A stretch of 64,000 nt of DNA from a virus. Its lineage: Duplodnaviria > Heunggongvirae > Uroviricota > Caudoviricetes. Every line of letters starts with the position of its first letter. The first letter of the stretch is position 1. Positions 41,480 to 61,263 of the stretch are shown one piece after another. Below the pieces are notes generated by a model. That model was not told the origin of the DNA. It ran no database searches and saw only the letters and a program-made list of their open reading frames with translations. The translations under genes and the position numbers were made by a program. The stretch lies in IMG/VR virus record IMGVR_UViG_3300010370_000025. One strand, given 5' to 3'.

Positions 41480-42238
41480 ATGCAGACGATACTTATTACT
41501 GGGCATAAAGGCTTTATAGGAAGTCATTTATTTAAATATCTTTCTGAAAACTATAATTGTATAGGTCTAGATATAAAAGATGGTCAAGATATTAGATCAT
41601 GTGATTTACCTAACTGTAATATTATTATTCACTTAGCAGGGTTAGCAGGGGTAAGACATAGTTTTAATAAACCGGATTTATATTGGGATGTAAACGTTAA
41701 TGGATCAAAAAGAATATTTGAACACGCTAATAAAATAAATGCTAAAGTTTTATATGCTTCTAGCTCTACTGCTAAGAATCCAGAAACAAGTCCATATGCT
41801 CAAACTAAAAGAGCATTAGAATTAATATCTCCTAAAAATTCTATAGGCATGAGATTTCATACAGTATACGGAATTGATTCTAGACCGGATATGATGTATA
41901 GAAAGTTACTCGAAAATACAGCAGAATATATTACAACACATACTAGAGACTTTACAAGTATAAAAGATCTAATAGTAGCAGTTGAAATTTTATTATTAAG
42001 TGATTATACTGGTATTGTAGACATCGGTACTGGTGAGCAAGTTCAAGTATCGCAGCTTGCAGCTGCAATAGGTAGAAATTTACCATATAAAAGTGTTACA
42101 GGTGAACAGGTTTCAAGTAAAGCAGACACTAGAGTACTTAAATCTCTTGGCTGGTCACCTAAGTATGTCGTATTGGATGAAATAAAGAATGATCTTCTTC
42201 AAAAAAATAAGATGGAAAAATCTGTTAAGTACAGGTAA
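41480..42238 (+). CDS. Short NAD(P)-dependent epimerase/dehydratase (extended SDR) inserted between gp47 and gp46
   Basis: Rossmann motif 'ITGHKGFIGSHL' and a catalytic 'YAQTK' YxxxK. Confidence 0.6.
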   Translation: MQTILITGHKGFIGSHLFKYLSENYNCIGLDIKDGQDIRSCDLPNCNIIIHLAGLAGVRHSFNKPDLYWDVNVNGSKRIFEHANKINAKVLYASSSTAKNPETSPYAQTKRALELISPKNSIGMRFHTVYGIDSRPDMMYRKLLENTAEYITTHTRDFTSIKDLIVAVEILLLSDYTGIVDIGTGEQVQVSQLAAAIGRNLPYKSVTGEQVSSKADTRVLKSLGWSPKYVVLDEIKNDLLQKNKMEKSVKYR

Positions 42239-44113: not shown

Positions 44114-44279
44114 TTTTGAATCTAGATATCGTAAATGGCATACTTATATGTCTTATGTTAAGAGTGGTATTCGTATTGTTGCATTTGGCGGATTGGCATT
44201 AGGATTGATTGGAGCTGCATTTACAGCAACTCTATTACTTATTGCTGAATTAGTTGGTGTAGCAGAGGAGTGGGTATGA
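44106..44279 (+). CDS. Small predicted membrane protein (57 aa), missed by the ORF track
   Basis: ATG at 44106, a hydrophobic stretch 'IRIVAFGGLALGLIGAAFTATLLLIAELVGV', and a stop that overlaps the next ATG. Confidence 0.3.
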   Translation: MSDFESRYRKWHTYMSYVKSGIRIVAFGGLALGLIGAAFTATLLLIAELVGVAEEWV

Positions 44280-44896
44280 GCGATTATCGTTATGAAGTAG
44301 TAGGTATTTTTCCTTTACCAATTTTAGTAGCTTCTTTGCCTAGAGATTTTCTTCAGCTTGAAATAGACTATTTTCAAGATCTAGAAAGCAAAACAGTTGA
44401 TAATGTAGGTAATAAAGTATCTAAAAATAAAAATGTTTTAGGTGAGCCTGTATTAGGTCGTCTAAATGCAGATTGTCATAATTTACTTAAATGCTTTGTA
44501 GATAAAATTTATAACCCAGAAAATGAGTTAGAACCATATATTACTCAATCTTGGGTTAATTATACTACTGAAGGTCAAGATCACCACAGACACACTCATC
44601 CTAATAGTTGGTTATCAGGGGTAGTTTATATTAATGCAGATAAAGAACATGATAAGATTTATTTTCATAATGAGCCTTATAAACTAATTAATCCGGTTAC
44701 TAAAGAACATAATCCATTTAACTGTACGTCTTGGTCAATACCTGTAAAGACAGGAGATATTGTAATATTTCCGTCAGATATTTCACACAGCGTAGGAACA
44801 AAGACTGGCAATAATACTAGAGTTAGTCTAGCATTTAATAGCTTTGTAAAAGGTATTGTAGGAAGCTATGATGGCTCTACTGAATTAATTTTGTGA
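44276..44896 (+). CDS. 2OG-Fe(II) oxygenase superfamily protein (second paralog)
   Basis: 'HHRHTHPNSWLSGVVY' and 'IFPSDISHS' are paralogous to 35834-36634. Confidence 0.65.
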   Translation: MSDYRYEVVGIFPLPILVASLPRDFLQLEIDYFQDLESKTVDNVGNKVSKNKNVLGEPVLGRLNADCHNLLKCFVDKIYNPENELEPYITQSWVNYTTEGQDHHRHTHPNSWLSGVVYINADKEHDKIYFHNEPYKLINPVTKEHNPFNCTSWSIPVKTGDIVIFPSDISHSVGTKTGNNTRVSLAFNSFVKGIVGSYDGSTELIL

Positions 44897-44902
44897 GATA
44901 TT

Positions 44903-45400
44903 ATGAATATAATTAAATTTCCTGATCCAGTATTAACTACTGAGACTCAATATTTTGATTTTGAAAATCCACCTATGGATCCTAACGAACTATCTTTAAC
45001 GTTAATCCGTAAAGTGAATGAGCATAACGGGCTTGGATTATCCGCTAACCAGCTAGGTATTCCATATAAAGTGTTTGTTATTAAAGGCAATCCTAATATT
45101 GTATGTTTTAATCCTAAAATAGTATCCCATAGTGATGATGAAACTATTATGGTTGAAGGTTGCTTATCTTACCCCAATTTACTAATTAAGATTAGACGTC
45201 CAGTAGAGATTAGAACTCGTTTTCAAGTACCATCTGGAGTTACTACAACTAAACCATTTGTAGGTCTTACAGCAAGAGTATTTCAGCACGAACTAGATCA
45301 CCTTAACGGTATAGCATTTTTTAATAGAGCTAACCTTTATCATAAAGAACAAGCATTTAGGAAACTTAAAAATGACAACAGAAGAGCAGCCCAGCGCTAA
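44903..45400 (+). CDS. def: Peptide deformylase
   Basis: Three PDF motifs: 'GLSANQLG', 'EGCLSYP' and 'HELDHLNG'. Confidence 0.85.
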   Translation: MNIIKFPDPVLTTETQYFDFENPPMDPNELSLTLIRKVNEHNGLGLSANQLGIPYKVFVIKGNPNIVCFNPKIVSHSDDETIMVEGCLSYPNLLIKIRRPVEIRTRFQVPSGVTTTKPFVGLTARVFQHELDHLNGIAFFNRANLYHKEQAFRKLKNDNRRAAQR

Positions 45401-45685: not shown

Positions 45686-46522
45686 ATGTCAAAGATTAAA
45701 ATAGCAGAACTGTTCTATTCACTTCAAGGTGAGGGGCAGTATCTTGGAACTCCAAGCCTCTTTCTTAGAGTGTTTGGATGTAATTTTATGTGCCAGGGGT
45801 TCTCAATGCCTCGTGGTGAGCTCTCTGAAGAGCGTTTATCGATAGATCCAGCAAAATATGAAAAGTATGATAATTTACCTCTAGTACATACTGGATGTGA
45901 TTCATACGCGTCTTGGGATGCTCGTTTTAAGCATCTATCACCAATGCTTACAGTTGAAGCTATTGTTGATAGAATGCAGCAAATACTCCCAGGCGGTAAG
46001 TTTGGACATACTCATCTTATTCTTACTGGTGGTGAGCCTTTGCTTGGATGGCAAAGATCATATCCTGCTTTGTTGCAAGAAATTATTAACCGAGACATGG
46101 ATCTCGGATACATTACTTTTGAAACTAATGGTACGCAAGAGTTAACAGATCAATTGCAAGGTGTTCTTAAACACTTTAATGTTACTTATAGTGTATCATC
46201 TAAATTACCTTCTTCTGGAGAAAAATGGGAAGAAGCAATTAAGCCTGAAATTGTTAACAAATATGTTCGTAATGGTGATCTAACTTACTTTAAATGGGTC
46301 GTGTCAAACGAAGACGATTATAATGATGTCATCAAAGCTATTGATGAGTATAGTAAAGTTATCGATATGACACAAGTGCCTATTTACCTTATGCCTGCAG
46401 GTGGAACTACAAAACATTATGATAATAATGAAAAGTGGGTTGCAGATTTAGCTATGAAACATGGGTGGAGATATAGTCCACGTCTACAAGTTCAACTCTG
46501 GAAAAATGCATGGGGCACATAA
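45686..46522 (+). CDS. queE: 7-carboxy-7-deazaguanine synthase QueE (radical SAM)
   Basis: 'LFYSLQGEG', 'GCNFMCQGF' and 'LTGGEPLL'. Confidence 0.8.
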   Translation: MSKIKIAELFYSLQGEGQYLGTPSLFLRVFGCNFMCQGFSMPRGELSEERLSIDPAKYEKYDNLPLVHTGCDSYASWDARFKHLSPMLTVEAIVDRMQQILPGGKFGHTHLILTGGEPLLGWQRSYPALLQEIINRDMDLGYITFETNGTQELTDQLQGVLKHFNVTYSVSSKLPSSGEKWEEAIKPEIVNKYVRNGDLTYFKWVVSNEDDYNDVIKAIDEYSKVIDMTQVPIYLMPAGGTTKHYDNNEKWVADLAMKHGWRYSPRLQVQLWKNAWGT

Positions 46523-47052
46523 TGAGTAATAATACAGCAGATATAGTTATGCCAAAAGGCAGATTTTACAAATACGTTAGCACTAAAGAATATCATAACG
46601 CATTTCCATGTGCATACAGACAGTGGCGTGCAGACAGTCATTGTAATTTAATTCACGGCTATGCTTTTTCAATGAAATTTTATTTTGGAACAGATCATCT
46701 TGATGCTCGTAATTGGTGTGCAGATTATGGTGGTCTTAAGGAACTTAAGAAAGTACTAGAAGATCAATTTGATCACACTTTACTCGTTGCGCAAGATGAT
46801 CCAGAATTTGAAACATATAAATTGCTTGAAAGTAAAAACTTAGCTAAACTAACAGTACTACCTAAGCTAGGCTGTGAAGGTTTAGCTGATATGCTTTATA
46901 AGTATGTAAACGGGGTTTATATACCTGATATGTGGGGTCCAGGTGAAGCAGAACGTCTATGGTGTTTTAGAGTAGAAGTTCGCGAAACAGTTTCTAATAT
47001 GGCCTACCGTGAAGGCCACCGTGAATGGCATGAGGATCTATTTAATGACTGA
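46522..47052 (+). CDS. queD: 6-carboxy-5,6,7,8-tetrahydropterin synthase QueD
   Basis: PTPS-fold motifs 'CNLIHGYAF' and 'FDHTLL'. TAATG overlap with queE (alternative start 46510). Confidence 0.75.
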   Translation: MSNNTADIVMPKGRFYKYVSTKEYHNAFPCAYRQWRADSHCNLIHGYAFSMKFYFGTDHLDARNWCADYGGLKELKKVLEDQFDHTLLVAQDDPEFETYKLLESKNLAKLTVLPKLGCEGLADMLYKYVNGVYIPDMWGPGEAERLWCFRVEVRETVSNMAYREGHREWHEDLFND

Positions 47053-47812
47053 TAATGATTTTGATGTGATATATGATGAGTCTGGCTTTGTAGTAGGTCA
47101 GGTAAGTAAACCAATCTCTGCATCTAATAAAATTAAGCAAAGGTTACAAGATGCCAATCATCGCTATTATGCCAATGATAACATTAGCAAATTTTTGGAC
47201 GATAATACTCGTCAGCAGCTTATTGACGAAGTAGCAACTAAATTCGATGGTGTGCTTCGTTCACTGTTAATTGACGTTGATAATGATCCAAACTCTAAAG
47301 GTACAGCTAAGCGTCTCGCTAAGATGTATATTAATGAGATTATGAGAGGTAGATATCATGACGAACCAGACGTTACCTCATTTCCAAATGATGGCTCTCA
47401 TGGGACAGACCCTTATAAAGGTATGTTGGTTGTTAGGGCTGAACTTAAGTCTATGTGTAGTCATCACCATCAACCTGTTACTGGTACAGCATATATTGGT
47501 GTCATACCTAATACCCATGTTATTGGTCTCAGTAAGTACATTCGTATTGCGCAGCATTGTGCGCGACGTGGAACGCTACAGGAAGAACTTTGCGGAGACA
47601 TAGCAAAGGCAATTAGCTCTGCTACACAGTCAAAAGATGTAGGTGTGTATATTGAAGCAACTCATGGGTGCTGTGAGAACAGAGGTATTAGCGCGTCTAA
47701 CTCACTTACGCAAACAGCTGTGCTTATGGGTGACTTCCTTACTGATCCTTCAGTAAAGAACGAGTTCTATAGTAATATTAAGTTACAAACAAGTCGCTAT
47801 TCTTGTAACTAA
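47045..47812 (+). CDS. folE: GTP cyclohydrolase I (FolE)
   Basis: 'CSHHHQPV' and 'HVIGLSKYIRIAQHCARRGTLQEEL'. ATG at 47045 (track 47009). Confidence 0.8.
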   Translation: MTDNDFDVIYDESGFVVGQVSKPISASNKIKQRLQDANHRYYANDNISKFLDDNTRQQLIDEVATKFDGVLRSLLIDVDNDPNSKGTAKRLAKMYINEIMRGRYHDEPDVTSFPNDGSHGTDPYKGMLVVRAELKSMCSHHHQPVTGTAYIGVIPNTHVIGLSKYIRIAQHCARRGTLQEELCGDIAKAISSATQSKDVGVYIEATHGCCENRGISASNSLTQTAVLMGDFLTDPSVKNEFYSNIKLQTSRYSCN

Positions 47813-48116: not shown

Positions 48117-48551
48117 ATGACGTGGTATAAGAATGCTGAAGGTAGACATGGTGCTGCAGGAGCTAAAGGTGATGCAGGTGAAGAACTTGTCAAACATTAT
48201 CTAGAAGAAAGTAATATCAATTACGAGCATAAGACTGATATTGACAGTCAAGTTAATAAAAAGATTGACTTCATTGTAGAAGGTACTACAATGGATGTTA
48301 AGACTAATGCATACAAAGATTTTCTTGCAGTAGAAATTGCTACATCAAAAGGTAAACCAGGGTGGCTTTATACTTCTACTGCAGAAGAGATTTACGGTGT
48401 AGATTTAGAAAAAGAAGAGATATACAGATATCTACGTGAAGAGATGATTCAGTATGCAGCAGATAATGCGCATCGATTTAAAGTAACAAAAAATAATTCA
48501 GTACTACTTTGGGTACATAAAGATAATAAAATGATTGAGAGATTGCAATGA
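48117..48551 (+). CDS. Hypothetical protein (possible PD-(D/E)xK nuclease fold: 'IDFIVEG...MDVKT')
   Basis: Weak motif resemblance only. Confidence 0.3.
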   Translation: MTWYKNAEGRHGAAGAKGDAGEELVKHYLEESNINYEHKTDIDSQVNKKIDFIVEGTTMDVKTNAYKDFLAVEIATSKGKPGWLYTSTAEEIYGVDLEKEEIYRYLREEMIQYAADNAHRFKVTKNNSVLLWVHKDNKMIERLQ

Positions 48552-49339
48552 AGATAGCACATGAAGCACCAATAAGCATTTTTCCTCAAGTACAGCGCAT
48601 GACTGATTATGATTATGCGCTTGTTCACTTATTTGAATCTAATATGTTTTACTATCGCATGTTTAAAGATGCAGTTATTAACGGGCGTGAAGTTATTTTA
48701 GATAATTCTATTTTTGAATTGGGATATGCATTTGACGGTGATTCATATCATAATTGGATTTTAACTTTAAGCCCTACTTGGTATATTGTGCCTGATGTAT
48801 TAGAAGATACAAATGGTACTCTTAATAGTCTTAATAAGTGGTTTTCAAAGTTTGATATTCCAAAGCCTATTAAGTCTATTGGAGCTATTCAAGGTACTAC
48901 CTACGATGAAATTGTAGAGTGTTATCAGGGGGTTGAACCTTTTGTAGATAAGGTTGCTATATCATTTGATTTTTCTTATTATATTAAGTCAACAGAATAT
49001 TTAAAGCCTGATAATAAGTATTATGCTTGGATGCTTGGCCGTCAAAAGCTATTGAAAGATTTGCTTAATGATGGTATTATCAATACTAATAAACCCCATC
49101 ACCTTCTTGGGTGCGCATTACCTCAAGAGTTTTTAGCTTATAAAGATTATAAGTGGATTGACTCTGTAGATACTTCTAATCCTATTGTACATGGATTAAA
49201 TGGTATAGCGTATAAACCTAATGGTTTAGATGAAAAGATTTCTACTAAACTTATTGATTATATGACTGAGAGTGTTACTGATACTCAACTAGAATTTATT
49301 AAAGGTAATATTGAACAGTTTAGAAAGTTTTGTAAGTGA
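48548..49339 (+). CDS. tRNA-guanine-transglycosylase-fold protein (DpdA-like 7-deazaguanine DNA transglycosylase candidate)
   Basis: TGT-like motifs 'ILDNSIFELG' (cf. DSGGFQ), 'HLLGCALP' (cf. LMGVGTP) and 'IDSVDTSNP' (cf. GVDMFDCV). It is embedded among que genes. Confidence 0.5.
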   Translation: MKIAHEAPISIFPQVQRMTDYDYALVHLFESNMFYYRMFKDAVINGREVILDNSIFELGYAFDGDSYHNWILTLSPTWYIVPDVLEDTNGTLNSLNKWFSKFDIPKPIKSIGAIQGTTYDEIVECYQGVEPFVDKVAISFDFSYYIKSTEYLKPDNKYYAWMLGRQKLLKDLLNDGIINTNKPHHLLGCALPQEFLAYKDYKWIDSVDTSNPIVHGLNGIAYKPNGLDEKISTKLIDYMTESVTDTQLEFIKGNIEQFRKFCK

Positions 49340-49884
49340 AACCTTGGATTGCGCTCTTTAGTAATACTGGTAGCGAGCTCAAAAGGATCTGCGATCATTT
49401 TGATATATGGCCTACATCTGTAATTACTAATAATTTTAACTCGGATGATTGGCGTCATAATATTCCAGAAGATATTGTGACAATGATGTCACCTAGCGCT
49501 ATTCACGCCGGGTTTAAGCATATGTATAAAAGGCAGTTTGTTACTCTACATGGGTATATGAGAATATTGCCTCCAGAAGCATGTGAAATGCATGATGTAT
49601 ATAACGGGCATCCAGGCGCTATCAATCTTTATCCTGAACTTAAAGGTAAAGATCCTCAAGAGCGAGTGTGGAATGATCTAGGTAAATATGAGTTTATTGG
49701 TTCAGTTGTGCATAAAGTTACTGAAGAGCTTGATGGTGGTGAGATTGTAAGTAAAGTCTTTTGCGAAAACACTTGCACTTCTAAAGAAGAGCTCTATAAT
49801 ACAATTAGAGAAACTTCATTTAGATCATGGAAAAACTTTCTTTCAACTCATTTTGAGAGAGAGCTAGGAGTAAATAATGTCTGA
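49336..49884 (+). CDS. PurN/Fmt-family formyltransferase domain protein (DpdN-like candidate)
   Basis: 'NGHPGAINLYPELKG' and 'SVVHKVTEELDGGEIVSKVF' match the PurN catalytic-loop pattern (H..D). Confidence 0.7.
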   Translation: MKPWIALFSNTGSELKRICDHFDIWPTSVITNNFNSDDWRHNIPEDIVTMMSPSAIHAGFKHMYKRQFVTLHGYMRILPPEACEMHDVYNGHPGAINLYPELKGKDPQERVWNDLGKYEFIGSVVHKVTEELDGGEIVSKVFCENTCTSKEELYNTIRETSFRSWKNFLSTHFERELGVNNV

Positions 49885-50122
49885 CGCAATTAAACCTGAT
49901 CATTATAAAGCAGGTAATGCATTGTATAGCTGTATCGATGTTATTGAAGATCTTTGTAAAGGTACAAAGAACGATACGTTTACAGATTATAATAGATTTC
50001 AAGCTTTTAAGTATATCTGGAGAGCAGGTAATAAAGATCCTGTACTTCAAGATCTTAAGAAAGCAGTTAGATTTTTAGAATTTGCTATTGCATACGAGGA
50101 AAAGAAGAATGGTAAAAATTGA
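49877..50122 (+). CDS. DUF3310-like small protein (paralog 1)
   Basis: Shared motifs with 51059-51472: 'PDHY', 'FKYIWRAGNKDP' and 'DLKKA..FLE'. Confidence 0.45.
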   Translation: MSDAIKPDHYKAGNALYSCIDVIEDLCKGTKNDTFTDYNRFQAFKYIWRAGNKDPVLQDLKKAVRFLEFAIAYEEKKNGKN

Positions 50123-51059
50123 GGATATTGCATCAAAGCATTTAGGTAAAGCTGGCGACGGTTCGGTAGTTAAGCCTTATGTTACACCAGATAATATTGA
50201 CCCTAGTCTTTTAGTAGGCGTTCCTCGTTATCTTAATCGCATTCAGTATGCAATTGATGAAAACAACCTTCCTTTTGAAGGTTTTGATACTTGGAATTGC
50301 TATGAGTTTTCTGCATTAACTGATAATGGATTTCCTGTATGCGGGGTAATTCGTTGTGTATATTCTAGCAGCTCTAAGAATATTGTAGAGTCAAAGTCTC
50401 TCAAGCTTTATATGAACTCTTATAATATGGCAAGGCTTGGTAAAAGTGTTAAAGAGGTGACTGAAAACGCAGTTGCAACTATCCGTAAAGATCTTGTAGA
50501 GGTTCTTGGATTAGCTGATGAAAATGATTTGAATGTTTCATTTTGTGATGATCAAAGCCCTTCATATGAACCTATCAATGAGCCATATAAGTCAGCATTT
50601 GTTAAGCTTGAATATGTTAATGACATTGAAAATATGACGTTTGATCATTATAATGAAGATCCTAAGATTCTTCAAGTTATACCAACTAATAATTCATCGG
50701 TAGAATTTAAATGGAAGTCATCTGTACTTCGCTCTAATTGTAGAGTAACCAATCAACCCGACTGGGGTGATGTTTTTATTTCTATTAAAGGCGATAATAC
50801 AATTACTTCAGAATCTTTACTCCAATACTTAGTATCTATGCGTAAAGAAAATCACTTTCACGAAGAAATTTGTGAATGCATTTATAAGAGATTATATGAT
50901 CTACTTAATCCAGAAGAGTTGTTTGTAGCTTGTCTTTATACACGTAGAGGCGGTATAGATATTAATCCAGCTCGCGCTACTAATAAAGAGGTAGTTATGA
51001 AACATGCTTCTATGCTTTATAATTCATCAATTAATAATATTAAAACTTTGAGGCAATAA
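50109..51059 (+). CDS. queF: NADPH-dependent 7-cyano-7-deazaguanine reductase QueF (two-domain type)
   Basis: QueF signature 'ESKSLKLYMNSY'. ATG at 50109 (track 50082). Confidence 0.7.
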   Translation: MVKIEDIASKHLGKAGDGSVVKPYVTPDNIDPSLLVGVPRYLNRIQYAIDENNLPFEGFDTWNCYEFSALTDNGFPVCGVIRCVYSSSSKNIVESKSLKLYMNSYNMARLGKSVKEVTENAVATIRKDLVEVLGLADENDLNVSFCDDQSPSYEPINEPYKSAFVKLEYVNDIENMTFDHYNEDPKILQVIPTNNSSVEFKWKSSVLRSNCRVTNQPDWGDVFISIKGDNTITSESLLQYLVSMRKENHFHEEICECIYKRLYDLLNPEELFVACLYTRRGGIDINPARATNKEVVMKHASMLYNSSINNIKTLRQ

Positions 51060-51472
51060 TGACAAAAGCTAGTAAGAGTAATATGTTTGAAAAGAGTGCA
51101 GCAGAAGAGCCGTTTTTAGCTACTATGGGTTCAACAGAACCGTTCGGTGCAGTAGGATCTTCTATTAGTGTAGATAATGTTAGCTTTACAATGCAAGAAC
51201 CTGCTTATATATCTACTCAGTACGACGTCAATCAAGAAACAGTAGATCATCCAGATCATTATGGTGGTGCTGATAATCCTTATGAAGCAATTAAGGTTAT
51301 TCGCGCTTGGGACCTTGGATTTAGTCTAGGTAATACAGTAAAATATATTTCACGTGCAGGTAAGAAAGATCCTAATAAGCGTCTTGAAGACTTGCAAAAA
51401 GCACTTTGGTATTTAGAAGAAGAGATTCAGTATGAATTTGCAAAAAGCCTTGGACCACGTTCCGGATACTAA
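51059..51472 (+). CDS. DUF3310-like small protein (paralog 2, with an N-terminal extension)
   Basis: 'PDHYGG', 'VKYISRAGKKDP' and 'DLQKALWYLEEE'. Confidence 0.45.
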   Translation: MTKASKSNMFEKSAAEEPFLATMGSTEPFGAVGSSISVDNVSFTMQEPAYISTQYDVNQETVDHPDHYGGADNPYEAIKVIRAWDLGFSLGNTVKYISRAGKKDPNKRLEDLQKALWYLEEEIQYEFAKSLGPRSGY

Positions 51473-52205
51473 ACATAATGTTGTATCAGTTCTCTCCGGA
51501 GGGCTCGACTCTACTATTATGACTTATATTCTTGTACGTAAGTATGGTGCAAATAGAGTCTTTGCACTTTCATATAACTACGGACAGAAGCAAAAAGTAG
51601 AACTTGAAATGGCAGCTAAGACATGTGAGTATCTTGGCGTAGCACATAAGGTTCTTGATCTAAGCATCCTAGGTGATATTGTTAAGAACGTCTCTGCTAA
51701 CATTGGTGGTAGTGATGTTAATATGCCTACTATTAAGGATGTGCTTGGAGATCCTCAACCTAAGACATACGTACCCTTCCGTAATATGATTCTTAATTCG
51801 TTAGCATTCTCGTTTGCAGAAGCTAATAAAGCAAGTCATGTATTTACTGGATTACAAGTACATGATGAATATGGTTATTGGGATACTACTCAGAAGTTTG
51901 TAGATAGTATGAATGCAGTAGCAGATCAAAATCGTACTCATAAAGTTAAACTAGAAGCGCCTTTTAGTCTTCTTTCTAAGTATGATGAACTTATGATAGC
52001 TAAAGAACTTGGTAATGTTCGTTTAGAATATACTCTTACCTGCTATGATCCAGATGAACAAGGTCGTTCATGCGGTATTTGCCCATCATGCTCTGAACGT
52101 CTTCAAAATTTTATTAAAGCAAATATGAGAGACCCTATTCAATACCAACCAGGTAGAACTGTTGATTGGGATAGGTTTCTTATTAACGGTGGTGTAAGCT
52201 ATTAA
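51432..52205 (+). CDS. queC: 7-cyano-7-deazaguanine synthase QueC
   Basis: PP-loop 'SGGLDS' and a C-terminal zinc motif 'CGICPSCSERL'. Confidence 0.8.
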   Translation: MNLQKALDHVPDTKHNVVSVLSGGLDSTIMTYILVRKYGANRVFALSYNYGQKQKVELEMAAKTCEYLGVAHKVLDLSILGDIVKNVSANIGGSDVNMPTIKDVLGDPQPKTYVPFRNMILNSLAFSFAEANKASHVFTGLQVHDEYGYWDTTQKFVDSMNAVADQNRTHKVKLEAPFSLLSKYDELMIAKELGNVRLEYTLTCYDPDEQGRSCGICPSCSERLQNFIKANMRDPIQYQPGRTVDWDRFLINGGVSY

Positions 52206-52849
52206 TGTGCAGTATATTTGGCAGTTTTAGTACTGAAAAGTTAAAAGAGTTAGCTGAGCTTAATTTATATAGAGGTCAGCACTCTTATTCTTTTTCATAC
52301 TATGATATCCTTAAAAGACAAATCACCTTTATGCAGAAAGATTTAGGTGAATTGCCTATTAATGACATTAATATACCTGAAGGGCATTATGCAATAGCAC
52401 ATATGCAAGCTCCCACTACAGGTAATAAAAGAGCTAACACTATACACCCGGCTACTATAGGCGTGCATAGTCTTTGGCATAATGGTATTATTAAAGATCA
52501 TTGTGTAAAAAATATGTCACGTAATACCGTTTTTATTGAAAATGGTGATTTAGATTATCTTTCTTGGGATACTTATTTAATTCTCCATCAGTATGTTTAT
52601 CAAGGCAATATAAATAATATAGATGGTACATTTTCATGCGTATACTATAGTGAGCGTGATGGATTGAGATTGTTTCGTAATGAGATATCACCGCTTTTTA
52701 TTGATAAAGAGCACAACATATCCTCAACTAAATTTAACGATTCAGAATCGCTAATGCCTAATATTATCTGGCAATTTTTGCCAGGTGAAGGTATAATGTC
52801 AATTGATACCTTTAAAACAGTAGAAAACCCTTATTATTTTGGAATATAA
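52205..52849 (+). CDS. Class-II (Ntn) glutamine amidotransferase-like domain protein, free-standing downstream of queC
   Basis: Begins 'MCSIFG', i.e. a nucleophile Cys right after Met as in AsnB/GATase-II. TAATG overlap with queC. Confidence 0.5.
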   Translation: MCSIFGSFSTEKLKELAELNLYRGQHSYSFSYYDILKRQITFMQKDLGELPINDINIPEGHYAIAHMQAPTTGNKRANTIHPATIGVHSLWHNGIIKDHCVKNMSRNTVFIENGDLDYLSWDTYLILHQYVYQGNINNIDGTFSCVYYSERDGLRLFRNEISPLFIDKEHNISSTKFNDSESLMPNIIWQFLPGEGIMSIDTFKTVENPYYFGI

Positions 52850-52852
52850 TTC

Positions 52853-53362
52853 ATGATGATTCATATTGCATCTAAAGAGACTGGATCTTCTCTTACTAAT
52901 TTAGTTGAAGCAGATATTCAACCTAATGCTGTAGATCTTAGAGTGAGTAAAATTTTCTCTATTAATCAAAATACTTTTGTTATCGGTGAAGATGATGATG
53001 GCAAAGAGACAAAAATTCATCGAGGTTCTACTGAAGTATATCCAGATGAGTACGGCTATTATACTCTTGACCCTGGCTCATATGAAGTAATTATGGAAAA
53101 TATTATTTCAGTGGGAGCTGATGAAGCGGGGTGGGTTATTACTCGTTCTACTCTTAATCGTAATGGTGTATATATTACTAGCGGGTTATATGATTCAGGT
53201 TATAATGGTGTCATGGCTGGCGCACTTCATGTAACTAGAGGTACTGCCCGTATTAAGAAGGGTACTCGAGTAGGGCAATTCCTATTATTTAAGTCTCAAT
53301 CTCTTAAGAAATATGATGGAGATTACGGTATCGGTAAGGCGCATGATCAAAAATATAATTGA
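52853..53362 (+). CDS. dUTPase/dCTP-deaminase-fold protein
   Basis: 'SGLYDSGYNGVMAGALHV' resembles the dUTPase/dCD motif III region. Predicted beta-rich. Confidence 0.45.
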   Translation: MMIHIASKETGSSLTNLVEADIQPNAVDLRVSKIFSINQNTFVIGEDDDGKETKIHRGSTEVYPDEYGYYTLDPGSYEVIMENIISVGADEAGWVITRSTLNRNGVYITSGLYDSGYNGVMAGALHVTRGTARIKKGTRVGQFLLFKSQSLKKYDGDYGIGKAHDQKYN

Positions 53363-53545: not shown

Positions 53546-54403
53546 ATGGAAATTAAAATTGAACTTGAAGAGCTAAGAAAGAAAAAGCTCTTTATTGCTA
53601 CCCCGATGTATGGTGGTGCTTGTACAGGTATGTACACTCGCTCTATGTGTGATTTGACATCGATGCTAGTAAAGTATGGTATTGAAATGCGATCATACTT
53701 CCTATTTAACGAATCACTTATTACTCGTGCACGTAACTATTGCGTGGATGAATTCTTGCGTTCTGACTTTACACATCTTATGTTTATTGACTCAGATATT
53801 GGATTTAATCCTCAAGACGTAATTGCACTTCTTGCATTACAGGACGATGATTCACCGTATGATGTTATCGGTGGACCTTATCCTAAAAAGTGTATTACAT
53901 GGGAAAAGGTAAAGCAAGCTGTCGATAAGGGTGTTGCTGATAAAGATCCTAACGTGCTTGAAGATTTTGTAGGCGACTTCGTATTCAATCCAGTTATTGA
54001 GAATGGTGCTAAGTCTAAGGAAATTCGTCTTGATGAACCTGCAGAGGTTCTTGAGATTGGTACTGGATTTATGATGATTCGTAAGAAGACGTTTGATCAG
54101 TATGCGGCAGCTTATCCAGAAATTATGTATAAGCCTGATCATGTTCGTACTGCTGCGTTTGATGGGTCGCGTGAGATTGGAATGTATTTCCAAGCAGAGA
54201 TTGATCCTGCATCTAAGCGCTATCTATCAGAAGATTATCTCTTCTGTCAAAACGTACGTAAGATGGGCGGTAAGGTATGGATTTGTCCGTGGATGCATAT
54301 GGCGCATTCAGGCTTCTATACATTCAATGGTAAGCTTCCCGCTCTTGCTTCTATTGGTGCATCAGCTACTGCTGATCCAGCGCTATTAAAGAATAAGAAG
54401 TAA
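53546..54403 (+). CDS. GT-A fold glycosyltransferase-like protein ('FIDSDIGF' DxD)
   Basis: DxD plus an upstream 'ESLITRARN' motif. Confidence 0.45.
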   Translation: MEIKIELEELRKKKLFIATPMYGGACTGMYTRSMCDLTSMLVKYGIEMRSYFLFNESLITRARNYCVDEFLRSDFTHLMFIDSDIGFNPQDVIALLALQDDDSPYDVIGGPYPKKCITWEKVKQAVDKGVADKDPNVLEDFVGDFVFNPVIENGAKSKEIRLDEPAEVLEIGTGFMMIRKKTFDQYAAAYPEIMYKPDHVRTAAFDGSREIGMYFQAEIDPASKRYLSEDYLFCQNVRKMGGKVWICPWMHMAHSGFYTFNGKLPALASIGASATADPALLKNKK

Positions 54404-54419
54404 TTAAAGGATATTTGTT

Positions 54420-55097
54420 ATGAAACTTAGTGAACAGACTATTAATATTTTAAAGAACTTTTCAGTTATTAATAATAACTTGCTTGTTAACCCAGGTAAT
54501 ATTCTTACTACTGTTGCCCCGCAATCACGTTCCGTGTACGCTAAAGCAAACGTAGAAGAAACTTTTCCAAAGCAATTTGCTATCTATGAATTGAATAAGT
54601 TTCTTGGTGTAGTATCTCTCTTCAAGGAACCAGAGCTTGAGTTTGGTGATATGTCAGTTAAGATTGTCTCAGGTAGACAATCAGTAAGCTATACATATGC
54701 AGACCCATCTATGGTTATTGCACCAGATCCTAATAAGGATATTAATTTTCCGACAGCAGATATTGAGTTCTCCATTTCTCAAGAAGAACTTCAGCGCGTC
54801 GTAAGGGCTGCAGGTGTTCTTCAGTTGCCGGAAATTGCAGTGACTGGTGATGGTGCGAACATTACCGTCACTGCTACTAATTCAAAGAATCCAACTACTG
54901 ATGTATTCAGTATTGAGGTAGGTGAGACTAATCATACTTTTAATATGTTAATTAAAGCAGAAAATATTATTAAGTTAATTTCTGCTAACTATGAAGTAAA
55001 GATTACATCGCGCGGACTAGCACAATTTAAGTCTAATAATGTAATCTATTATATTGCAACAGAAGCTAATAGCACATTTAATAAGGATGAAAATTAA
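54420..55097 (+). CDS. gp45: Sliding clamp gp45
   Basis: Colinear with T4 gp45 ('MKLS..T..LKNF..IN'). Confidence 0.85.
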   Translation: MKLSEQTINILKNFSVINNNLLVNPGNILTTVAPQSRSVYAKANVEETFPKQFAIYELNKFLGVVSLFKEPELEFGDMSVKIVSGRQSVSYTYADPSMVIAPDPNKDINFPTADIEFSISQEELQRVVRAAGVLQLPEIAVTGDGANITVTATNSKNPTTDVFSIEVGETNHTFNMLIKAENIIKLISANYEVKITSRGLAQFKSNNVIYYIATEANSTFNKDEN

Positions 55098-55690
55098 TGA
55101 ACGTATATATTCTACTTGACAGATCAGGTTCTATGTCAAGTCTTTGGAATGAAGCAATTGGCGCTATTAATGCATACGTAAAAAAGCTTGACAAAAAGAC
55201 CAAGATCTTTTTATCAACTTTTGATAATGAAAGCTATGATGTTCTTCGTAACTCTAGTGTAAAAGAGTGGAAGGATATTGGTGAGAAAGAATCGCATCCT
55301 AGAGGTATGACTCCTCTTTATGATTCTTGTGCACGTATTATGAATCGTGCAATTGAAGATAATAGCGATAAAACTATTCTTGTCGTAATGACAGATGGTT
55401 TTGAGAATTGCTCAAGAGAGCATACTCGTGAACAGATTAAAGCTAAGATTAAAGACTTTGAAAAGAAAAACTGGGAAGTTGTTTTTCTCGGAGCAAACTT
55501 TGATAAGGTAGATTCAGTTGCATCTGATCTCGGGCTAGCGTATAATAAGTTTACAAATATTACTACAAATAACCTTAGATCGTATATGATGGGTAGTCTA
55601 GCTGACGCTACTGTAGCATATACTACTGCAGGTACTGCAGTAAATATTACTGACAAAGATAAGATGTCTGCTACTAAAGCATCAGTCTAA
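55097..55690 (+). CDS. von Willebrand factor A domain protein (MIDAS 'DRSGSM') inserted between gp45 and gp44
   Basis: vWA motifs 'LLDRSGSM', 'T....' and 'VVMTDGFEN'. Confidence 0.7.
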   Translation: MNVYILLDRSGSMSSLWNEAIGAINAYVKKLDKKTKIFLSTFDNESYDVLRNSSVKEWKDIGEKESHPRGMTPLYDSCARIMNRAIEDNSDKTILVVMTDGFENCSREHTREQIKAKIKDFEKKNWEVVFLGANFDKVDSVASDLGLAYNKFTNITTNNLRSYMMGSLADATVAYTTAGTAVNITDKDKMSATKASV

Positions 55691-57463: not shown

Positions 57464-58534
57464 ATGTATAATTATGATGATGTTAGAGTAGTTCATTTAG
57501 AAATTACTCAAAAGTGTCAAGCTTCCTGTCCGATGTGTGACAGAAATCAAAATGGGGGCTTAATCAACCCCCATCTTTCTTTAGCTGAACTCTCCTTAGA
57601 AAATTGTAAGCAAATATTTGAGCCTGCTTTTATTAAGCAGCTTAACTACATGTATATGTGTGGTAATTTAGGTGATCCTATTATTGCTAATGATACTCTA
57701 GAAGTATTTGATTACTTTCGCACACATAACCCTAACATGAAACTAAGCATGAATACCAATGCAGGTGCTAGAAATCAGCAATGGTGGCGAGATCTTGCTA
57801 AAGTATTAGGCCCGAAGGGGATGGTAAGATTCTCTATAGATGGATTAGAAGATACTAATCATATCTACAGAAGAGGTGTTCAATGGGATAATGTAATGAG
57901 CTCTCTTACCAGTTTTATTGATGCTGGAGGTAACGCTATATGGGATTATTTAATATTTGATCATAATGCACATCAAGTAGAAGAAGCAAAAAAATTATCA
58001 GTTAATCTAGGTGTAAAAACTTTTGTAGAAAAGAAAACATCTAGATTCTATAGTACAGCAAAAACATCTCTTAAAGATACTCATACTGTAAAAGATCGTA
58101 AAGGTAACGATCAATATGATCTAAAACCAGTAGATACACCTCTTAATAATAAAATTAATAATACTATAGATAAGCATGGTAGTCTATCTAACTATTATGA
58201 TACAACAGAAATAGTTTGTAAAGTAAAAGAACAAAAAAGTATTTTTATTACTGCTGAAGGTCTAGCAATGCCTTGTTGCTGGACTGCTTCCCGTATGTAT
58301 AAGTGGTGGCATAAAGATCCTAAAGTAGAACAGGTGTGGCAATTTATTAAAGATACAGATAGAATAAACGTTCTTAAACACGGTATTAAAGATGTGCTTA
58401 ATAATGGTGTATTTCAAGATATAGAAGTAAGCTGGGGGCTTCGATCAGTAGCAGAAGGTAAACTGAAAGTATGCTCTGAGAAATGTGGTAAAGAGTTTGA
58501 TCCGTTTAAGGAACAATTTGTTAATGCAAAATAA
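57464..58534 (+). CDS. Radical SAM enzyme with a C-terminal SPASM/twitch-like Cys cluster (rSAM-A)
   Basis: 'ITQKCQASCPMC' (CxxxCxxC), 'CGNLGDP', and a C-terminal 'C-x12-G-x4-CC ... CSEKCGKEF'. Confidence 0.65.
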   Translation: MYNYDDVRVVHLEITQKCQASCPMCDRNQNGGLINPHLSLAELSLENCKQIFEPAFIKQLNYMYMCGNLGDPIIANDTLEVFDYFRTHNPNMKLSMNTNAGARNQQWWRDLAKVLGPKGMVRFSIDGLEDTNHIYRRGVQWDNVMSSLTSFIDAGGNAIWDYLIFDHNAHQVEEAKKLSVNLGVKTFVEKKTSRFYSTAKTSLKDTHTVKDRKGNDQYDLKPVDTPLNNKINNTIDKHGSLSNYYDTTEIVCKVKEQKSIFITAEGLAMPCCWTASRMYKWWHKDPKVEQVWQFIKDTDRINVLKHGIKDVLNNGVFQDIEVSWGLRSVAEGKLKVCSEKCGKEFDPFKEQFVNAK

Positions 58535-59927
58535 AATATCATCTACATTCTGCGCTTTACCTTGGGTACATTTAAGCACAAGACCAGACGGTTCAATGCG
58601 TGTGTGTTGCACAGCTAATGCATCAGGAGTACAAGATCCTGATAGTAGTAAGCGTGTTAATGGTGGTAATGCAGGTATAGTTAAGAATCAAAATAATATG
58701 CCAGCAAATCTCAACCACACATCACTTAATGATGCGTGGAATAATGAGTACATGTGCAACGTGCGTAAAACAATGCTTAAAGGTGAAAAGCCAACTTCTT
58801 GTCTCAAATGTTATAAAGAAGAAGAAGCAGGTGTTATCAGTAAACGTCAATGGGAAACTGATTACTGGGGTAAGATATTTGATCTTAATGAGATAGTATC
58901 GGAGACTAAAGAAGATGGTTCTATTCCAGCAAAAATTAGATATTTAGATCTTAGACTAGGTTCTAAATGTCAGCTTGCATGTGTTATGTGTTCACCGCAT
59001 GATAGTTCAGGTTGGGTAAAAGAATGGAATGAAATTTATCCTAAGATTGAAAATGAAAATTTAAAACGTAATAGTAATTGGCATATGAAGGGCCAAGTAG
59101 GTGGTGCTAGCTATAACTGGCATCTTAATAATCCTACATTCTGGGAAGAGCTTTATGAGCAGATTCCTCATATGTATCAACTATACTTTGCTGGTGGTGA
59201 AAGCACTATCATTAAAGAACATTATCTTCTTCTGGAAGAGTGTATCAAAAGAGGATATGCAAGCCAAATTGAACTTAGATATAACTCTAACGGGCTTGAA
59301 TTGCCTGAAAAGCTTTTCGAGCTTTGGTCGCATTTTAGGTTAGTTAAATTTCATTTTTCTATAGATGCATTAGGCAAGCAGAACGAATATATTCGTTATC
59401 CTACTGATTGGAAGACTATAGAAAATAACTTACACATTCTTGATAATACCCCTGATAATGTAGAAGTAACAATAGCTTGTACCTTGATGGCATTAAACAT
59501 ATACTATTTTCCAGATTTTATAAAGTGGAAACTTACTCAAGGCTTTAAAAAGATCAATAAATATCCATACGGTGCTGGAACTATTAATACCCATTTTGCG
59601 TATTACCCTCCTCAGCTTAACGTTAAAGTCCTGCCTAAAGAGTTTAAACAAAAAGTCGTTGACAAATACGAAAACGATTTCTTTCCTTGGTTAGAAGAAA
59701 ACTGGAAACTTGCAACAGGCATACCTGACACTGTAAGTAAAGAAAAGTGGTTTAGTGAGAATTATAGTATTAAAAGATATAAAAGTATTCTAAACTTTAT
59801 GAATAAAGAAGACTGGAGTCAAAGATTACCAGAGACTGCAGAATGGATTAAACGTATAGATGATACCCGTGGTTTGAACTTCTATGAAATATTTCCTGAT
59901 TTTGATTGGTTAAAAAATTATGAGTAA
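58524..59927 (+). CDS. Radical SAM enzyme with an N-terminal SPASM-like Cys-rich domain (rSAM-B)
   Basis: N-terminal 'FCALPW..DGSMRVCC' and 'SCLKCYKEEEAG', followed by a core 'LGSKCQLACVMC' and 'FAGGEST'. ATG at 58524. Confidence 0.55.
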   Translation: MQNKISSTFCALPWVHLSTRPDGSMRVCCTANASGVQDPDSSKRVNGGNAGIVKNQNNMPANLNHTSLNDAWNNEYMCNVRKTMLKGEKPTSCLKCYKEEEAGVISKRQWETDYWGKIFDLNEIVSETKEDGSIPAKIRYLDLRLGSKCQLACVMCSPHDSSGWVKEWNEIYPKIENENLKRNSNWHMKGQVGGASYNWHLNNPTFWEELYEQIPHMYQLYFAGGESTIIKEHYLLLEECIKRGYASQIELRYNSNGLELPEKLFELWSHFRLVKFHFSIDALGKQNEYIRYPTDWKTIENNLHILDNTPDNVEVTIACTLMALNIYYFPDFIKWKLTQGFKKINKYPYGAGTINTHFAYYPPQLNVKVLPKEFKQKVVDKYENDFFPWLEENWKLATGIPDTVSKEKWFSENYSIKRYKSILNFMNKEDWSQRLPETAEWIKRIDDTRGLNFYEIFPDFDWLKNYE

Positions 59928-61263
59928 GACGTTTTGTCCTATGCCTTGGAATTCAGTTAACCTGCGCAATAATGGTGATATGCGCATTTGCTGTAACGCC
60001 AATTCATATACTAAAAATAGAGGTATTCTTAGAAAAGAGGACGGTACTGCATTTAATATCGGTAGAGATGATATTAATGAAGCTAGAAACTCTTCTACAC
60101 TAAAAGAAGTAAGAGCTACTATGCTTAAGGGTGAATGGCATTCTGAGTGTGAGCGCTGCCGACAAGAAGAAGTAAATGGTATTAGAAGTAGAAGAGAGTA
60201 TGAATCAGAACTCTGGAATACTGTAGAGGAAAATATTAAAGATAAAACGTTAGAAGACGGTACTATTAATGCAGAAGAGATTCCTATAGATTATTTTGAT
60301 ATTAGATACGGTAATTTTTGTAATTTAAAATGTCGTATGTGTGCTCCTACTGAATCACATACATGGTTTAGTGATTATGTAGAATTATACAAAACTAACA
60401 AGTATAAAGATACTCATGATACAATAGTACTTACTAAAAATAAAAAAGGTAGATGGGTAACAGATCAATACGATTGGTTTAAAAACTCTAATCATTACTG
60501 GCATCAATTTGAAAAATATACAAAAAATGCTAAAAAGTTTTATATAGTAGGAGGTGAACCTCTTATTATTGAAGAACATATTGATTCTTTAGAGCGTTTA
60601 ATTTATAATGGTAATTCTAAAGAGGTAGTTATAGAGTATAATACTAATTTAACAAACGTTACACCACGTATTCTTGAATTATGGAAAAACTTTAAGCAGA
60701 TTAGAATTGGTGCATCAATTGACGGGTTTGGTGATGTGTTTGAATATCAGAGAACCCCAGCAAATTGGGATAGTGTCTATGAAAATTTGCTTAAGTTGGA
60801 TACTAATACGGATATTAATTTAGTAGGCTGGTTTGCATTTACTGTAACACCTATTAATATATTTCATTTACCAGAATTTATGAAATGGAAATTAACAGAT
60901 AGTAAGCTTAATAGATTTAATACTATAAGAGGTGTACGTAAAGTAATATCTCACCATATGTGTCACGCACCTAGACATTATAATGTTAAGTGTCTTCCAG
61001 ACGAGATAAAACAACAAGTAGATGTACATTTTGCAGAGTATAAAGAATGGGCTAAGTGTCAACCAGAAGATGTATATAAAGATTTCTGTAAACTATTGAA
61101 TGGTGTTTCTCGTTTTATGAACTCTGAAAGATACTACGATCCTCATTTTACTGATTTTATTGATATAACCGCTAAACTGGATAAAATTAGAAACCAAGAT
61201 GTGAGAAAAATTGTCCCTCAATTTACAAAATACTTTGATGCATATTACGAACGAAAATCCTGA
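59920..61263 (+). CDS. Radical SAM enzyme, paralog of rSAM-B (rSAM-C)
   Basis: 'FCPMPW..NGDMRICC', 'ECERCRQEEVNG', 'YGNFCNLKCRMC' and 'VGGEPL'. Confidence 0.55.
   Translation: MSKTFCPMPWNSVNLRNNGDMRICCNANSYTKNRGILRKEDGTAFNIGRDDINEARNSSTLKEVRATMLKGEWHSECERCRQEEVNGIRSRREYESELWNTVEENIKDKTLEDGTINAEEIPIDYFDIRYGNFCNLKCRMCAPTESHTWFSDYVELYKTNKYKDTHDTIVLTKNKKGRWVTDQYDWFKNSNHYWHQFEKYTKNAKKFYIVGGEPLIIEEHIDSLERLIYNGNSKEVVIEYNTNLTNVTPRILELWKNFKQIRIGASIDGFGDVFEYQRTPANWDSVYENLLKLDTNTDINLVGWFAFTVTPINIFHLPEFMKWKLTDSKLNRFNTIRGVRKVISHHMCHAPRHYNVKCLPDEIKQQVDVHFAEYKEWAKCQPEDVYKDFCKLLNGVSRFMNSERYYDPHFTDFIDITAKLDKIRNQDVRKIVPQFTKYFDAYYERKS

Follow-up and report, generated by a model that had tools for sequence, protein, structure and literature searches.

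DpdA enzymes share the fold of tRNA-guanine transglycosylase (TGT), and those tested to date all insert preQ0 into DNA, at levels of 0.1-30% of the guanines (Gs) or less (PMC10516641). The DpdA3 subfamily, named by Cui et al. in 2023, was linked to complete G replacement, by dADG in phage CP220, by dDG in phage phiST and by formyl-preQ1 (fdPreQ1), which takes the place of all guanines, in phage immuto_2-6A; the PurN-like protein encoded next to DpdA3, DpdN, was proposed as a formyltransferase (PMC10516641). The same authors propose post-replicative insertion (PMC10516641), a view for which the grounds are that a DpdA homologue is present and that the other subfamilies are DNA enzymes: DpdA3 would flip guanines out of replicated phage DNA and insert preQ1, and DpdN would then formylate dPreQ1 in the DNA. 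Here we analyze a gene of this kind in an uncultured T4-like phage, represented by 64,000 nucleotides of the IMG/VR record IMGVR_UViG_3300010370_000025 (this whole stretch is called the window below). The open reading frame (ORF), dpdA3, lies at positions 48548-49339 on the + strand, from an ATG start to a TGA stop, and encodes 263 aa. Its product is almost certainly a member of the DpdA3 subfamily, for which Asp-mediated base exchange is a well-supported prediction. Further, we slightly favor, over the published post-replicative model, which we regard as a serious possibility, the hypothesis that the enzyme exchanges the base on free deoxyguanylate (dGMP) before replication, a statement that, taken as a whole, we consider to have about an even chance of being correct. 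Our analysis covers homology, fold, residue conservation and gene context, from which catalysis, base identity and substrate level are predicted.

The closest named relative of the ORF product is the DpdA3 of Flavobacterium phage immuto_2-6A (gp206, 264 aa), which shares 54.5% identity with it over the full length, belongs to the same length class and likewise has no zinc motif; hypothetical proteins of CP220-type Campylobacter phages share 42% identity, and a hidden Markov model (HMM) of the clade scores the CP220 and phiST proteins at 291 and 83 bits, respectively. An AlphaFold (AF2) model, built from 48 aligned metagenomic homologues (pLDDT 93.2, pTM 0.90), shows eight alternating strand/helix units, and a Foldseek search of this model against the PDB gave TGT entries exclusively among the matches listed (E ~1e-7, probability 1.0), the nearest solved structure being that of bDpdA, the DNA-acting bacterial DpdA of Salmonella Montevideo (PDB 7UI4). 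When viral models were searched instead, the second-best match was a founding DpdA3, CGPG_00065 of Cellulophaga phage phiST (BFVD model, TM 0.86-0.88). At the profile level, hhalign matched a 136-sequence DpdA3 alignment to five bacterial DpdA sequences recovered from plasmids with 95.8% probability (E 7.6e-9, 224 columns); the corresponding values were 75% and 2.5e-5 for a small bacterial TGT profile, in the C-terminal two thirds only, and 43% probability for the single TGT sequence of Z. mobilis. A preliminary description of this DNA, made from its letters alone, had proposed a DpdA-type protein of the TGT fold without the zinc subdomain; the structure search, the profile comparison with bDpdA and the identity to the immuto protein uphold that proposal, and the profile comparison provides the significant TGT-fold match on which it had been made to depend. 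The ORF boundaries given there also hold, both as an ATG-to-TGA frame and by independent gene calling: five metagenome contigs carry an identical protein, and the gene caller used for those contigs predicts the same 263-aa gene with the same neighbors. The ORF is a further member of a family that already has a name and is already annotated in the nearest cultured relative, so the finding is correct, not new.

Other searches recovered little of this relationship. A phmmer search against the PDB returned only a sub-threshold TGT match (E 0.81), an HMM built from close homologues did not recover TGT from the PDB, and one built from diverse homologues ranked 7UI4 first at a sub-threshold E of 0.11, aligned exactly at HLLG...IDSxD; in the PHROGs database, the only match was phrog_19058 (E 4e-49), annotated as 'unknown function'. 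Three results count against the TGT assignment or its details: scans with Pfam (TGT model PF01702 included), NCBIfam and PADLOC yielded zero matches for the ORF product, neither a local nor a global alignment to bacterial TGT was obtained for its first 120 residues, and the pairing of one predicted catalytic residue, D83, with D130 of bDpdA hinges on where hhalign places a gap. For the founding DpdA3 of phiST, the published HHpred probability to PF01702 is 98.8% (PMC10516641). The non-significant HMM-to-sequence PDB searches (E 0.11 to 7UI4; no TGT with the shallow profile) would suit a TIM barrel that does something else (e.g., a sugar-phosphate or pterin enzyme, or a QTRT2-like subunit without catalytic activity), in which the TGT-like motifs are convergent. 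We find this very unlikely, given that the hhalign match to bDpdA brings five active-site residues into register, that lineages at 23-28% identity all keep the three aspartates and that the gene always occurs among genes for 7-deazaguanine synthesis.

The predicted active site is well conserved. In an alignment of 88 sequences with a mean column identity of 35%, D52, E57, L58, P82, H185, L187, G188, D208 and P212 are invariant, and D52, N53, D83, R165, H185, L187, G188 and D208 are retained in members from phiST and from Bacillus, Campylobacter and Aeromonas phages at ~23-28% identity; hence, the motifs of the ORF do not reflect chance. Residue roles in bDpdA were taken from PMC10164549, and the Enterobacter plasmid DpdA was used for numbering as it matches the published Salmonella structure (D95, F99, D130, H181, L236, D256, C368/C370/C373/H395). 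Pairings to bDpdA come from hhalign against bDpdA, and those to TGT come from hhalign against the Z. mobilis sequence and the small bacterial TGT profile. D52 pairs with bDpdA D95 (acid/base) and F56 with F99 (aromatic lid); neither can be aligned to Z. mobilis TGT, so that the mapping of D52 rests on bDpdA because the N-terminal region is not alignable to the bacterial TGT. Q115 pairs with bDpdA H181 and TGT Q203 (base-edge contact), L187 with bDpdA L236 and the M260 position of TGT (base stacking), and D208 with bDpdA D256 and TGT D280 (nucleophile). Across DpdA3 lineages, position 115 is either Q or H, i.e., the residues used by TGT and by bDpdA, and both hmmsearch and hhalign pair the HLLG of the ORF with the Leu236-bearing HLLG of bDpdA and the YLMG of Z. 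mobilis TGT. D83 follows beta4 and is invariant in all lineages; hhalign pairs P82 with L129 and leaves D83 bordering a gap of 16 residues, a single column from D130 and in a region not alignable to Z. mobilis TGT, so its equivalence to D130 is a putative one. In TGT itself, the acid/base Asp that follows beta3 is D102, with the aromatic Y106 four residues on, the base-recognition Asp that follows beta4 is D156, and the nucleophile lies where beta8 ends. All three motifs named in the preliminary description, DNSIFE, HLLGCALP and IDSVDTS, are present in the translation, but the idea that they mark three catalytic-Asp regions holds only for DNSIFE (D52) and IDSVDTS (D208): HLLGCALP contains no Asp, and the third Asp is probably D83 in VPDVLED, a motif missing from that description.

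Against Z. mobilis TGT (PF01702), a tRNA enzyme, the likeness thus comprises the (beta/alpha)8 fold and, in the C-terminal half, the aligned elements IQG/IQQG (Q203), HHLLG/HYLMG and IDSVD/IDMFD (D280), whereas the zinc site of that enzyme (C318, C320, C323, H349) falls in a gap of the ORF product. The only cysteines of the latter are C125, C189 and C262, and CxCxxC, noted as missing in the preliminary description, occurs neither in this protein nor in 270 retrieved homologues, with hhalign against TGT leaving a gap at the motif. The same description had taken the lack of the zinc subdomain as what is expected of a DNA-acting DpdA; the absence itself is confirmed, but the expectation is not. 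Bacterial DpdA retains a zinc site, CxCx2Cx22H, that is conserved among members of its family and pins the large insertion Ins8 (PMC10164549), and in the DpdA1 of phage 9g two of the four ligands are gone (PMC5699537); the 9g sequence, which we checked, has no CxCxxC. Therefore, a missing zinc site does not in general mark a DpdA as DNA-acting; complete loss of the site is a trait of DpdA3 with its minimal architecture.

These differences from bDpdA extend well beyond zinc. bDpdA has 416 aa, with Ins1, Ins2, Ins3 and a 128-residue Ins8, shares ~13-16% identity with the ORF product (HMM-to-sequence E 0.11-0.56), requires the DpdB ATPase and modifies <0.1% of Gs (PMC10516641). The ORF product is a bare barrel in which hhalign leaves gaps at all four insertions, with ~36 residues between beta8 and the last helix vs. 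128 in bDpdA, and the DpdA3 family as a whole is acidic (median isoelectric point 5.5). Ins1, Ins2 and Ins8 were proposed as the DNA-binding surface of bDpdA (PMC10164549). Hence, while the published DNA-level model for DpdA3 gains from the closest solved structure being a DNA enzyme, matched at high profile probability, the insertions and the zinc-pinned domain that make up the proposed DNA-binding surface of that enzyme are missing here, and the protein is acidic. The partner genes also appear to differ: the plasmid dpdA genes that we retrieved are flanked by dpdB, whereas the genes flanking dpdA3 in the window were given identities other than DpdB or DpdC in general scans, which did not include a DpdB-profile search.

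Elements for binding tRNA, namely the zinc subdomain for dimerization and C-terminal/PUA domains, were likewise absent from the model and the alignments of the ORF product. A TGT that places preQ1 or preQ0 in tRNA, whether of the host or of the phage, would share the fold and the TGT-like catalytic residues, and phage TGT-like genes have historically been interpreted in this way (PMC5699537). However, besides the missing zinc subdomain, PUA domain and tRNA-binding insertions, the Pfam TGT model gives no match, no tRNA genes were found in the window, the gene is tightly coupled to dpdN and set among DNA-metabolism genes, and the phages with the closest homologues have fully modified DNA (PMC10516641), which makes a role in tRNA extremely unlikely.

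What substrate DpdA3 uses instead may be judged from its neighbors. Neighbor proteins and derived HMMs served as a panel to search the window, immuto, CP220 and 80 IMG/VR loci; the 80 loci represent related phages and are not independent. The core gene order is DpdA3 > DpdN > X > QueF, with dpdN directly 3' of dpdA3 in 77 of the 83 loci. Slot X, which usually abuts dpdN and lies at about +1300 relative to the start of dpdA3, is never empty where 1.5 kb or more of downstream sequence is available (74 loci): 58 loci have an AAA_28 gene of the P-loop kinase type, annotated as 'thymidylate kinase', 15 have a DUF3310 gene and one has both. This alternation has the look of a nucleotide kinase displaced by a non-orthologous one. 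For T7 gp1.7, DUF3310 was implicated in nucleotide-kinase activity (PMC10700055). A second alternation was seen among 52 loci: 25 carry a MazG-like PRA-PH gene immediately upstream of dpdA3 and 23 a DCD/dUTPase-fold gene downstream, with both present in none and neither in four. In the DCD-like proteins of the window and of a phiST-like locus (L103), a 'GA' stands at what we take to be the position of the catalytic Glu of dCTP deaminase, and this replacement suggests that they may be dNTP (deoxynucleoside triphosphate) pyrophosphatases. Genes of the DCD/dUTPase-fold or MazG-like PRA-PH module have the coordinates 52853-53362 in the window, 8279-8803 in L001, 2555-3082 in L103, 960-1499 in L104 and 4930-5466 in L108.

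Gene fusions involve the same components. DpdA3 is fused to DpdN in two clusters defined at 50% identity (P0147 and P0228; L102 2262-3605), the contig of P0147 continuing with an AAA_28 kinase-type gene and then QueF; it is fused to DUF3310 in one short contig (P0260, L088 64-1098); and DpdL is fused to AAA_18 in uncultured phiST-like phages (L103 3082-3996, L104 1489-2457). The DpdA3::DUF3310 fusion is a point in favor of action on nucleotides. The DpdA3::DpdN fusions would suit a processive pair of DNA-modifying enzymes, i.e., the DNA-level model. Under that model, the kinase, phosphoribosyltransferase-domain (PRT) and pyrophosphatase neighbors would serve general nucleotide metabolism or a loop that recycles guanine to GTP, and a PRT plus a kinase is indeed what a guanine salvage loop requires. 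Such a loop leaves unexplained, however, the recurrent dNTP-pyrophosphatase-type genes. A PRT could salvage the guanine freed by base exchange. PRT genes occur in 41 of the 83 loci (immuto-type) and in L103 and L104 (6840-7235 in L001, 2043-2558 in L103 and 416-949 in L104); none was found in the window.

Since the 80 loci come from related phages, we also examined distant DpdA3 lineages, whose membership was confirmed by the family HMM (73-100 bits). In all seven lineages examined, a small nucleotide-kinase-type gene lies beside or near dpdA3, often together with an NTP-pyrophosphatase-type gene; the kinase-type genes belong to at least five unrelated families, and in the distant lineages they are adjacent to dpdA3 or at most two genes away. 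CP220 has HD+AAA_33 upstream of dpdA3 and AAA_28 downstream; CC_R7 has the order QueC-DpdA3-AAA_28-DNA polymerase; in phiST, MazG, DpdL and an AAA_18 P-loop protein (CGPG_00066) precede DpdA3; and in its uncultured relatives L103 and L104, a PRT, a DCD-like gene and the DpdL::AAA_18 fusion precede it. In Bacillus phage BSTP12 and Weizmannia phage Youna2, the gene for an unclassified P-loop protein (GCDKTGKS) overlaps the DpdA3 start and a DNA polymerase gene lies downstream. Finally, the locus of Aeromonas phage Ahp1, examined as a test of the prediction that a kinase gene would be found nearby, was positive: a DpdA3-like gene is followed by a T4 gp1-type deoxynucleoside monophosphate (dNMP) kinase gene (DNMK; PF21448, E 1.7e-17) and then by a DCD-like gene. 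The T4 gp1 kinase is specific for deoxynucleotides, and its presence beside the Ahp1 homologue is also left unexplained by a guanine salvage loop. On the other hand, the DNA polymerase genes that often adjoin dpdA3 (CC_R7, BSTP12, Youna2), as they do the DNA-acting DpdA1 of phage 9g, are a point in favor of the DNA-level model.

The DpdA1 cluster of phage 9g, a phage with partial dG+ replacement, served as a control; its three unannotated genes (gp07, gp09 and gp10) and the flanking clamp gene encode no protein with a Walker A motif and did not match the kinase/pyrophosphatase panel. Searches for further DpdA1 and DpdA2 controls by tblastn against phages gave only ordinary bacterial-type tgt genes with Z. 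mobilis TGT as the query and one unannotated record with bDpdA. KVP40.0122 (459 aa, between folE and queF) is probably a DpdA2; this could not be confirmed, as it matched neither Pfam nor the DpdA3 HMM and only two IMG/VR loci were found for it, and it was not counted as a control. It was also considered whether the P-loop neighbors might be DpdB-like ATPase partners, which is unlikely for the T4 gp1-type DNMK and for DUF3310 and less so for AAA_28 and AAA_18.

Taken together, the recurrence of kinase-type and dNTP-hydrolase-type genes, the bare acidic barrel, the 100% substitution, the failed heterologous tests and the ADG nucleoside suggest a pre-replicative route. Regarding the latter three, DNA-level DpdA enzymes stay at or below 30% of Gs vs. 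100% in DpdA3 phages; action on DNA is so far a prediction for DpdA3, and attempts in an E. coli model, in which DpdA3 was expressed without the kinase and pyrophosphatase neighbors, are reported to have failed; and ADG was reported in nucleoside form in the cytoplasm of CP220-infected cells (PMC10516641). The word 'kinase' does not appear in that paper, which defined DpdA3 (PMC10516641).

In the route that we slightly favor, an NTP-pyrophosphatase-type (or HD) enzyme would hydrolyze dGTP to dGMP, thereby depleting dGTP, and DpdA3 would swap the base on dGMP. As in the double displacement of TGT, D208 would attack C1' of the 2'-deoxyguanosine unit, guanine would depart with D52 acting as the acid while D83, Q115, F56 and L187 hold the base, and a 7-deazaguanine would attack the covalent intermediate. 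After optional tailoring by DpdN or DpdL, the neighboring kinase (DUF3310 here; AAA_28, AAA_18 or DNMK elsewhere) would re-phosphorylate the product and the phage polymerase would incorporate the modified nucleotide; 7-substituted 7-deaza-dGTPs are good polymerase substrates. We know of no TGT-fold enzyme that acts on a free nucleotide, and the odds appear balanced that DpdA3 enzymes are the first to act on a free deoxynucleotide (dGMP + preQ1, CDG or DG -> 7-deaza-dGMP + guanine). Base exchange at the nucleotide level would account for the fact that a G replacement of 100% is seen in DpdA3 phages only.

Several points speak against exchange on dGMP. In the papers cited here, the substrate of every biochemically characterized superfamily member is a polynucleotide, either tRNA or DNA, and Cui et al. 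placed the action of DpdA3 after replication, as mentioned above. The neighborhood evidence is guilt by association from 74 non-independent loci, and lytic phages cluster nucleotide-metabolism genes regardless. The DCD-like protein could be an ordinary dUTPase, and the PRT and kinase could form a guanine-to-GTP salvage route feeding 7-deazaguanine synthesis under the DNA-level model. Nucleotide-kinase activity of DUF3310 is known from T7 gp1.7 only (PMC10700055), and the kinase calls for BSTP12_039 and the Youna2 neighbor consist of a Walker A motif and sub-threshold Pfam matches.

Exchange on dGMP followed by re-phosphorylation would have the same logic as the systems that make complete base replacements by other means: a dNTP hydrolase removes the canonical nucleotide, a modified dNMP is made and a dedicated dNMP kinase follows. 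MazZ of the 2-aminoadenine phages and gp42, gp1 and gp56 of T4 are pre-replicative base-replacement enzymes of this kind. The analogy, which also includes PurZ and DatZ of the 2-aminoadenine phages (described in PMC8342488), is drawn from gene context only, the enzymes being unrelated. If exchange on dGMP proves true, it would represent a new substrate class for the TGT fold and a compact enzymatic route to 7-substituted 7-deaza-dNTPs. The activity of DpdA3 is so far a predicted one, and the swapped, sometimes fused, kinase-type neighbor together with the recurring NTP-pyrophosphatase-type neighbor provides a testable alternative to the published model of how certain phages replace every G.

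The DpdA3 family is also far larger than its deposited phage records imply. A word-indexed search gave 3,602 relatives, an exhaustive HMM search of metagenomes (E <= 1e-3) gave 3,308 clusters at 50% identity, and IMG/VR holds more than 577 loci, while only 18 deposited phage records (GenBank) match. The DpdA3 HMM gives 93-100 bits for family members from Bacillus and Weizmannia phages (e.g., BSTP12_038, L096 4896-5684; hits H100-H105); in GenBank, these proteins are either called hypothetical or wrongly annotated, as 'NadR trifunctional protein', 'polynucleotide kinase' or 'integrase'. They also show a weak match to Pfam DUF6610, the family matched to DpdA4 (Halovirus HVTV-1) in the paper that defined DpdA3 (PMC10516641). 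A scan of IMG/VR with a Bacillus-phage homologue found nothing.

Regarding the operon itself (Table 1), the stop codon of the upstream ORF overlaps the ATG of dpdA3 (ATGA) and the TGA of dpdA3 is overlapped by the GTG of the next gene, and these overlaps on both sides indicate that the upstream ORF, dpdA3 and the dpdN-like gene are translationally coupled. FolE, QueD, QueE, QueC, QueF and DpdN are encoded within 4 kb on the same strand, an arrangement kept in the 80 IMG/VR loci; megablast of the operon against deposited phages showed no nucleotide-level similarity. The DpdN-like protein of the window is 38% identical to immuto DpdN and retains NGHPG and LDGGEI, which correspond to the Asn/His/Asp catalytic residues of PurN. 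The operon core resembles that of immuto (FolE ... DpdA3-DpdN-[kinase-type gene]-QueF), and by analogy with the measurement in immuto_2-6A, its predicted end product is a G-replaced genome with 7-(formylamino)methyl-7-deazaguanine (fdPreQ1). The two operons differ in that immuto has an AAA_28 P-loop kinase-type gene and, upstream of dpdA3, a MazG-like PRA-PH gene, for which the window has DUF3310 and a DCD/dUTPase-like gene, respectively. In addition, the search of the window for a PRT gene was negative, and QueC and a stand-alone glutamine amidotransferase (Gat) gene follow just downstream in it. The DCD/dUTPase-fold protein is a possible dNTP pyrophosphatase of the module. The founding DpdA3 proteins, phiST CGPG_00065 (23% identity) and CP220 gp056 (42%), are similarly minimal barrels with kinase-type and NTP-hydrolase-type genes alongside, but their phages carry dDG and dADG, respectively, and the loci examined lack QueF and DpdN; the base inserted there must therefore differ from that of the window.

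Table 1. Predicted dpdA3 gene of the window, its motifs and the surrounding operon.
Feature	Coordinates	Strand	Assignment and evidence
queE, radical-SAM CDG synthase	45686..46522	+	NCBIfam QueE models; weak Pfam radical-SAM matches
queD, CPH4 synthase	46510..47052	+	Pfam PTPS, E 1.3e-14
folE, GTP cyclohydrolase I	47009..47812	+	Pfam GTP_cyclohydroI, E 8.5e-40
144-aa ORF	48117..48551	+	Weak nuclease-PHROG matches only; same position in ~11 related loci
dpdA3	48548..49339	+	Minimal TGT-fold (beta/alpha)8 transglycosylase, 263 aa
DNSIFE, residues 52-57	48701..48718	+	D52, predicted general acid/base; F56, predicted aromatic lid over the base
VPDVLED	48788..48808	+	D83, predicted base-recognition Asp (putative mapping)
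IQGT	48887..48898	+	Q115, predicted base-edge contact
HLLGCALP, residues 185-192	49100..49123	+	beta7 element; L187, predicted base-stacking; Asp-free
IDSVDTS, residues 204-210	49157..49177	+	D208, predicted nucleophile, would form the covalent deoxyribosyl-enzyme intermediate
dpdN-like PurN-family formyltransferase	49336..49884	+	GTG start; Pfam Formyl_trans_N, E 2e-9
DUF3310 protein, 81 aa	49877..50122	+	Pfam DUF3310, E 3e-10; slot of the AAA_28 gene in most relatives
queF, bimodular preQ0 reductase (to preQ1)	50082..51059	+	Pfam QueF_N and QueF; TIGR03138
Second DUF3310 protein, 137 aa	51059..51472	+	Pfam DUF3310, E 2.8e-13
queC, preQ0 synthase	51432..52205	+	Pfam QueC, E 3.7e-54; TIGR00364 above cut-off
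Stand-alone class-II (Ntn) glutamine amidotransferase-like	52205..52849	+	phrog_12378; weak PurF and GlmS matches
dCTP-deaminase/dUTPase-fold protein	52853..53362	+	Pfam DCD, E 8e-14; dUTPase, E 2.5e-5

The independent gene call starts queF at 50109 (316 aa), and the 144-aa ORF upstream of dpdA3 shows by eye a possible D...DVK motif. The stand-alone Gat, which has an N-terminal Cys, may supply ammonia to QueC instead of making archaeosine. An archaeosine (dG+) product was considered on account of this gene and rejected: the order QueF-QueC-Gat recurs in Vibrio phage KVP40 and ~50 relatives, and for VH7D, phi-Grn1 and phi-ST2, which are related to these KVP40-type phages, preQ1-type pathways have been reported or predicted (PMC10516641).

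The remainder of the window, which is ~34% G+C with essentially all genes on the + strand, includes PHROG matches to a late sigma factor, SbcD/SbcC-type gp47 and gp46, a sliding clamp, clamp loader subunits and RegA. A few further genes were observed there. An ORF of the NAD-dependent epimerase/dehydratase family (41480-42238) lies between the gp47-like (SbcD) and gp46-like (SbcC) genes, and three consecutive ORFs with radical-SAM matches, one of them with a weak SPASM match, come just after regA (57464-58534, 58485-59927 and 59920-61263). Finally, auxiliary genes near the operon (44270-44896, 44903-45400, 55097-55690 and 53546-54403) encode a 2OG-Fe(II) oxygenase of the TIGR02466 family, a peptide deformylase, a VWA-domain protein located between the clamp and the clamp loader, and a 285-aa protein whose only match, a weak one, is to Anp1 (glycosyltransferase-like).

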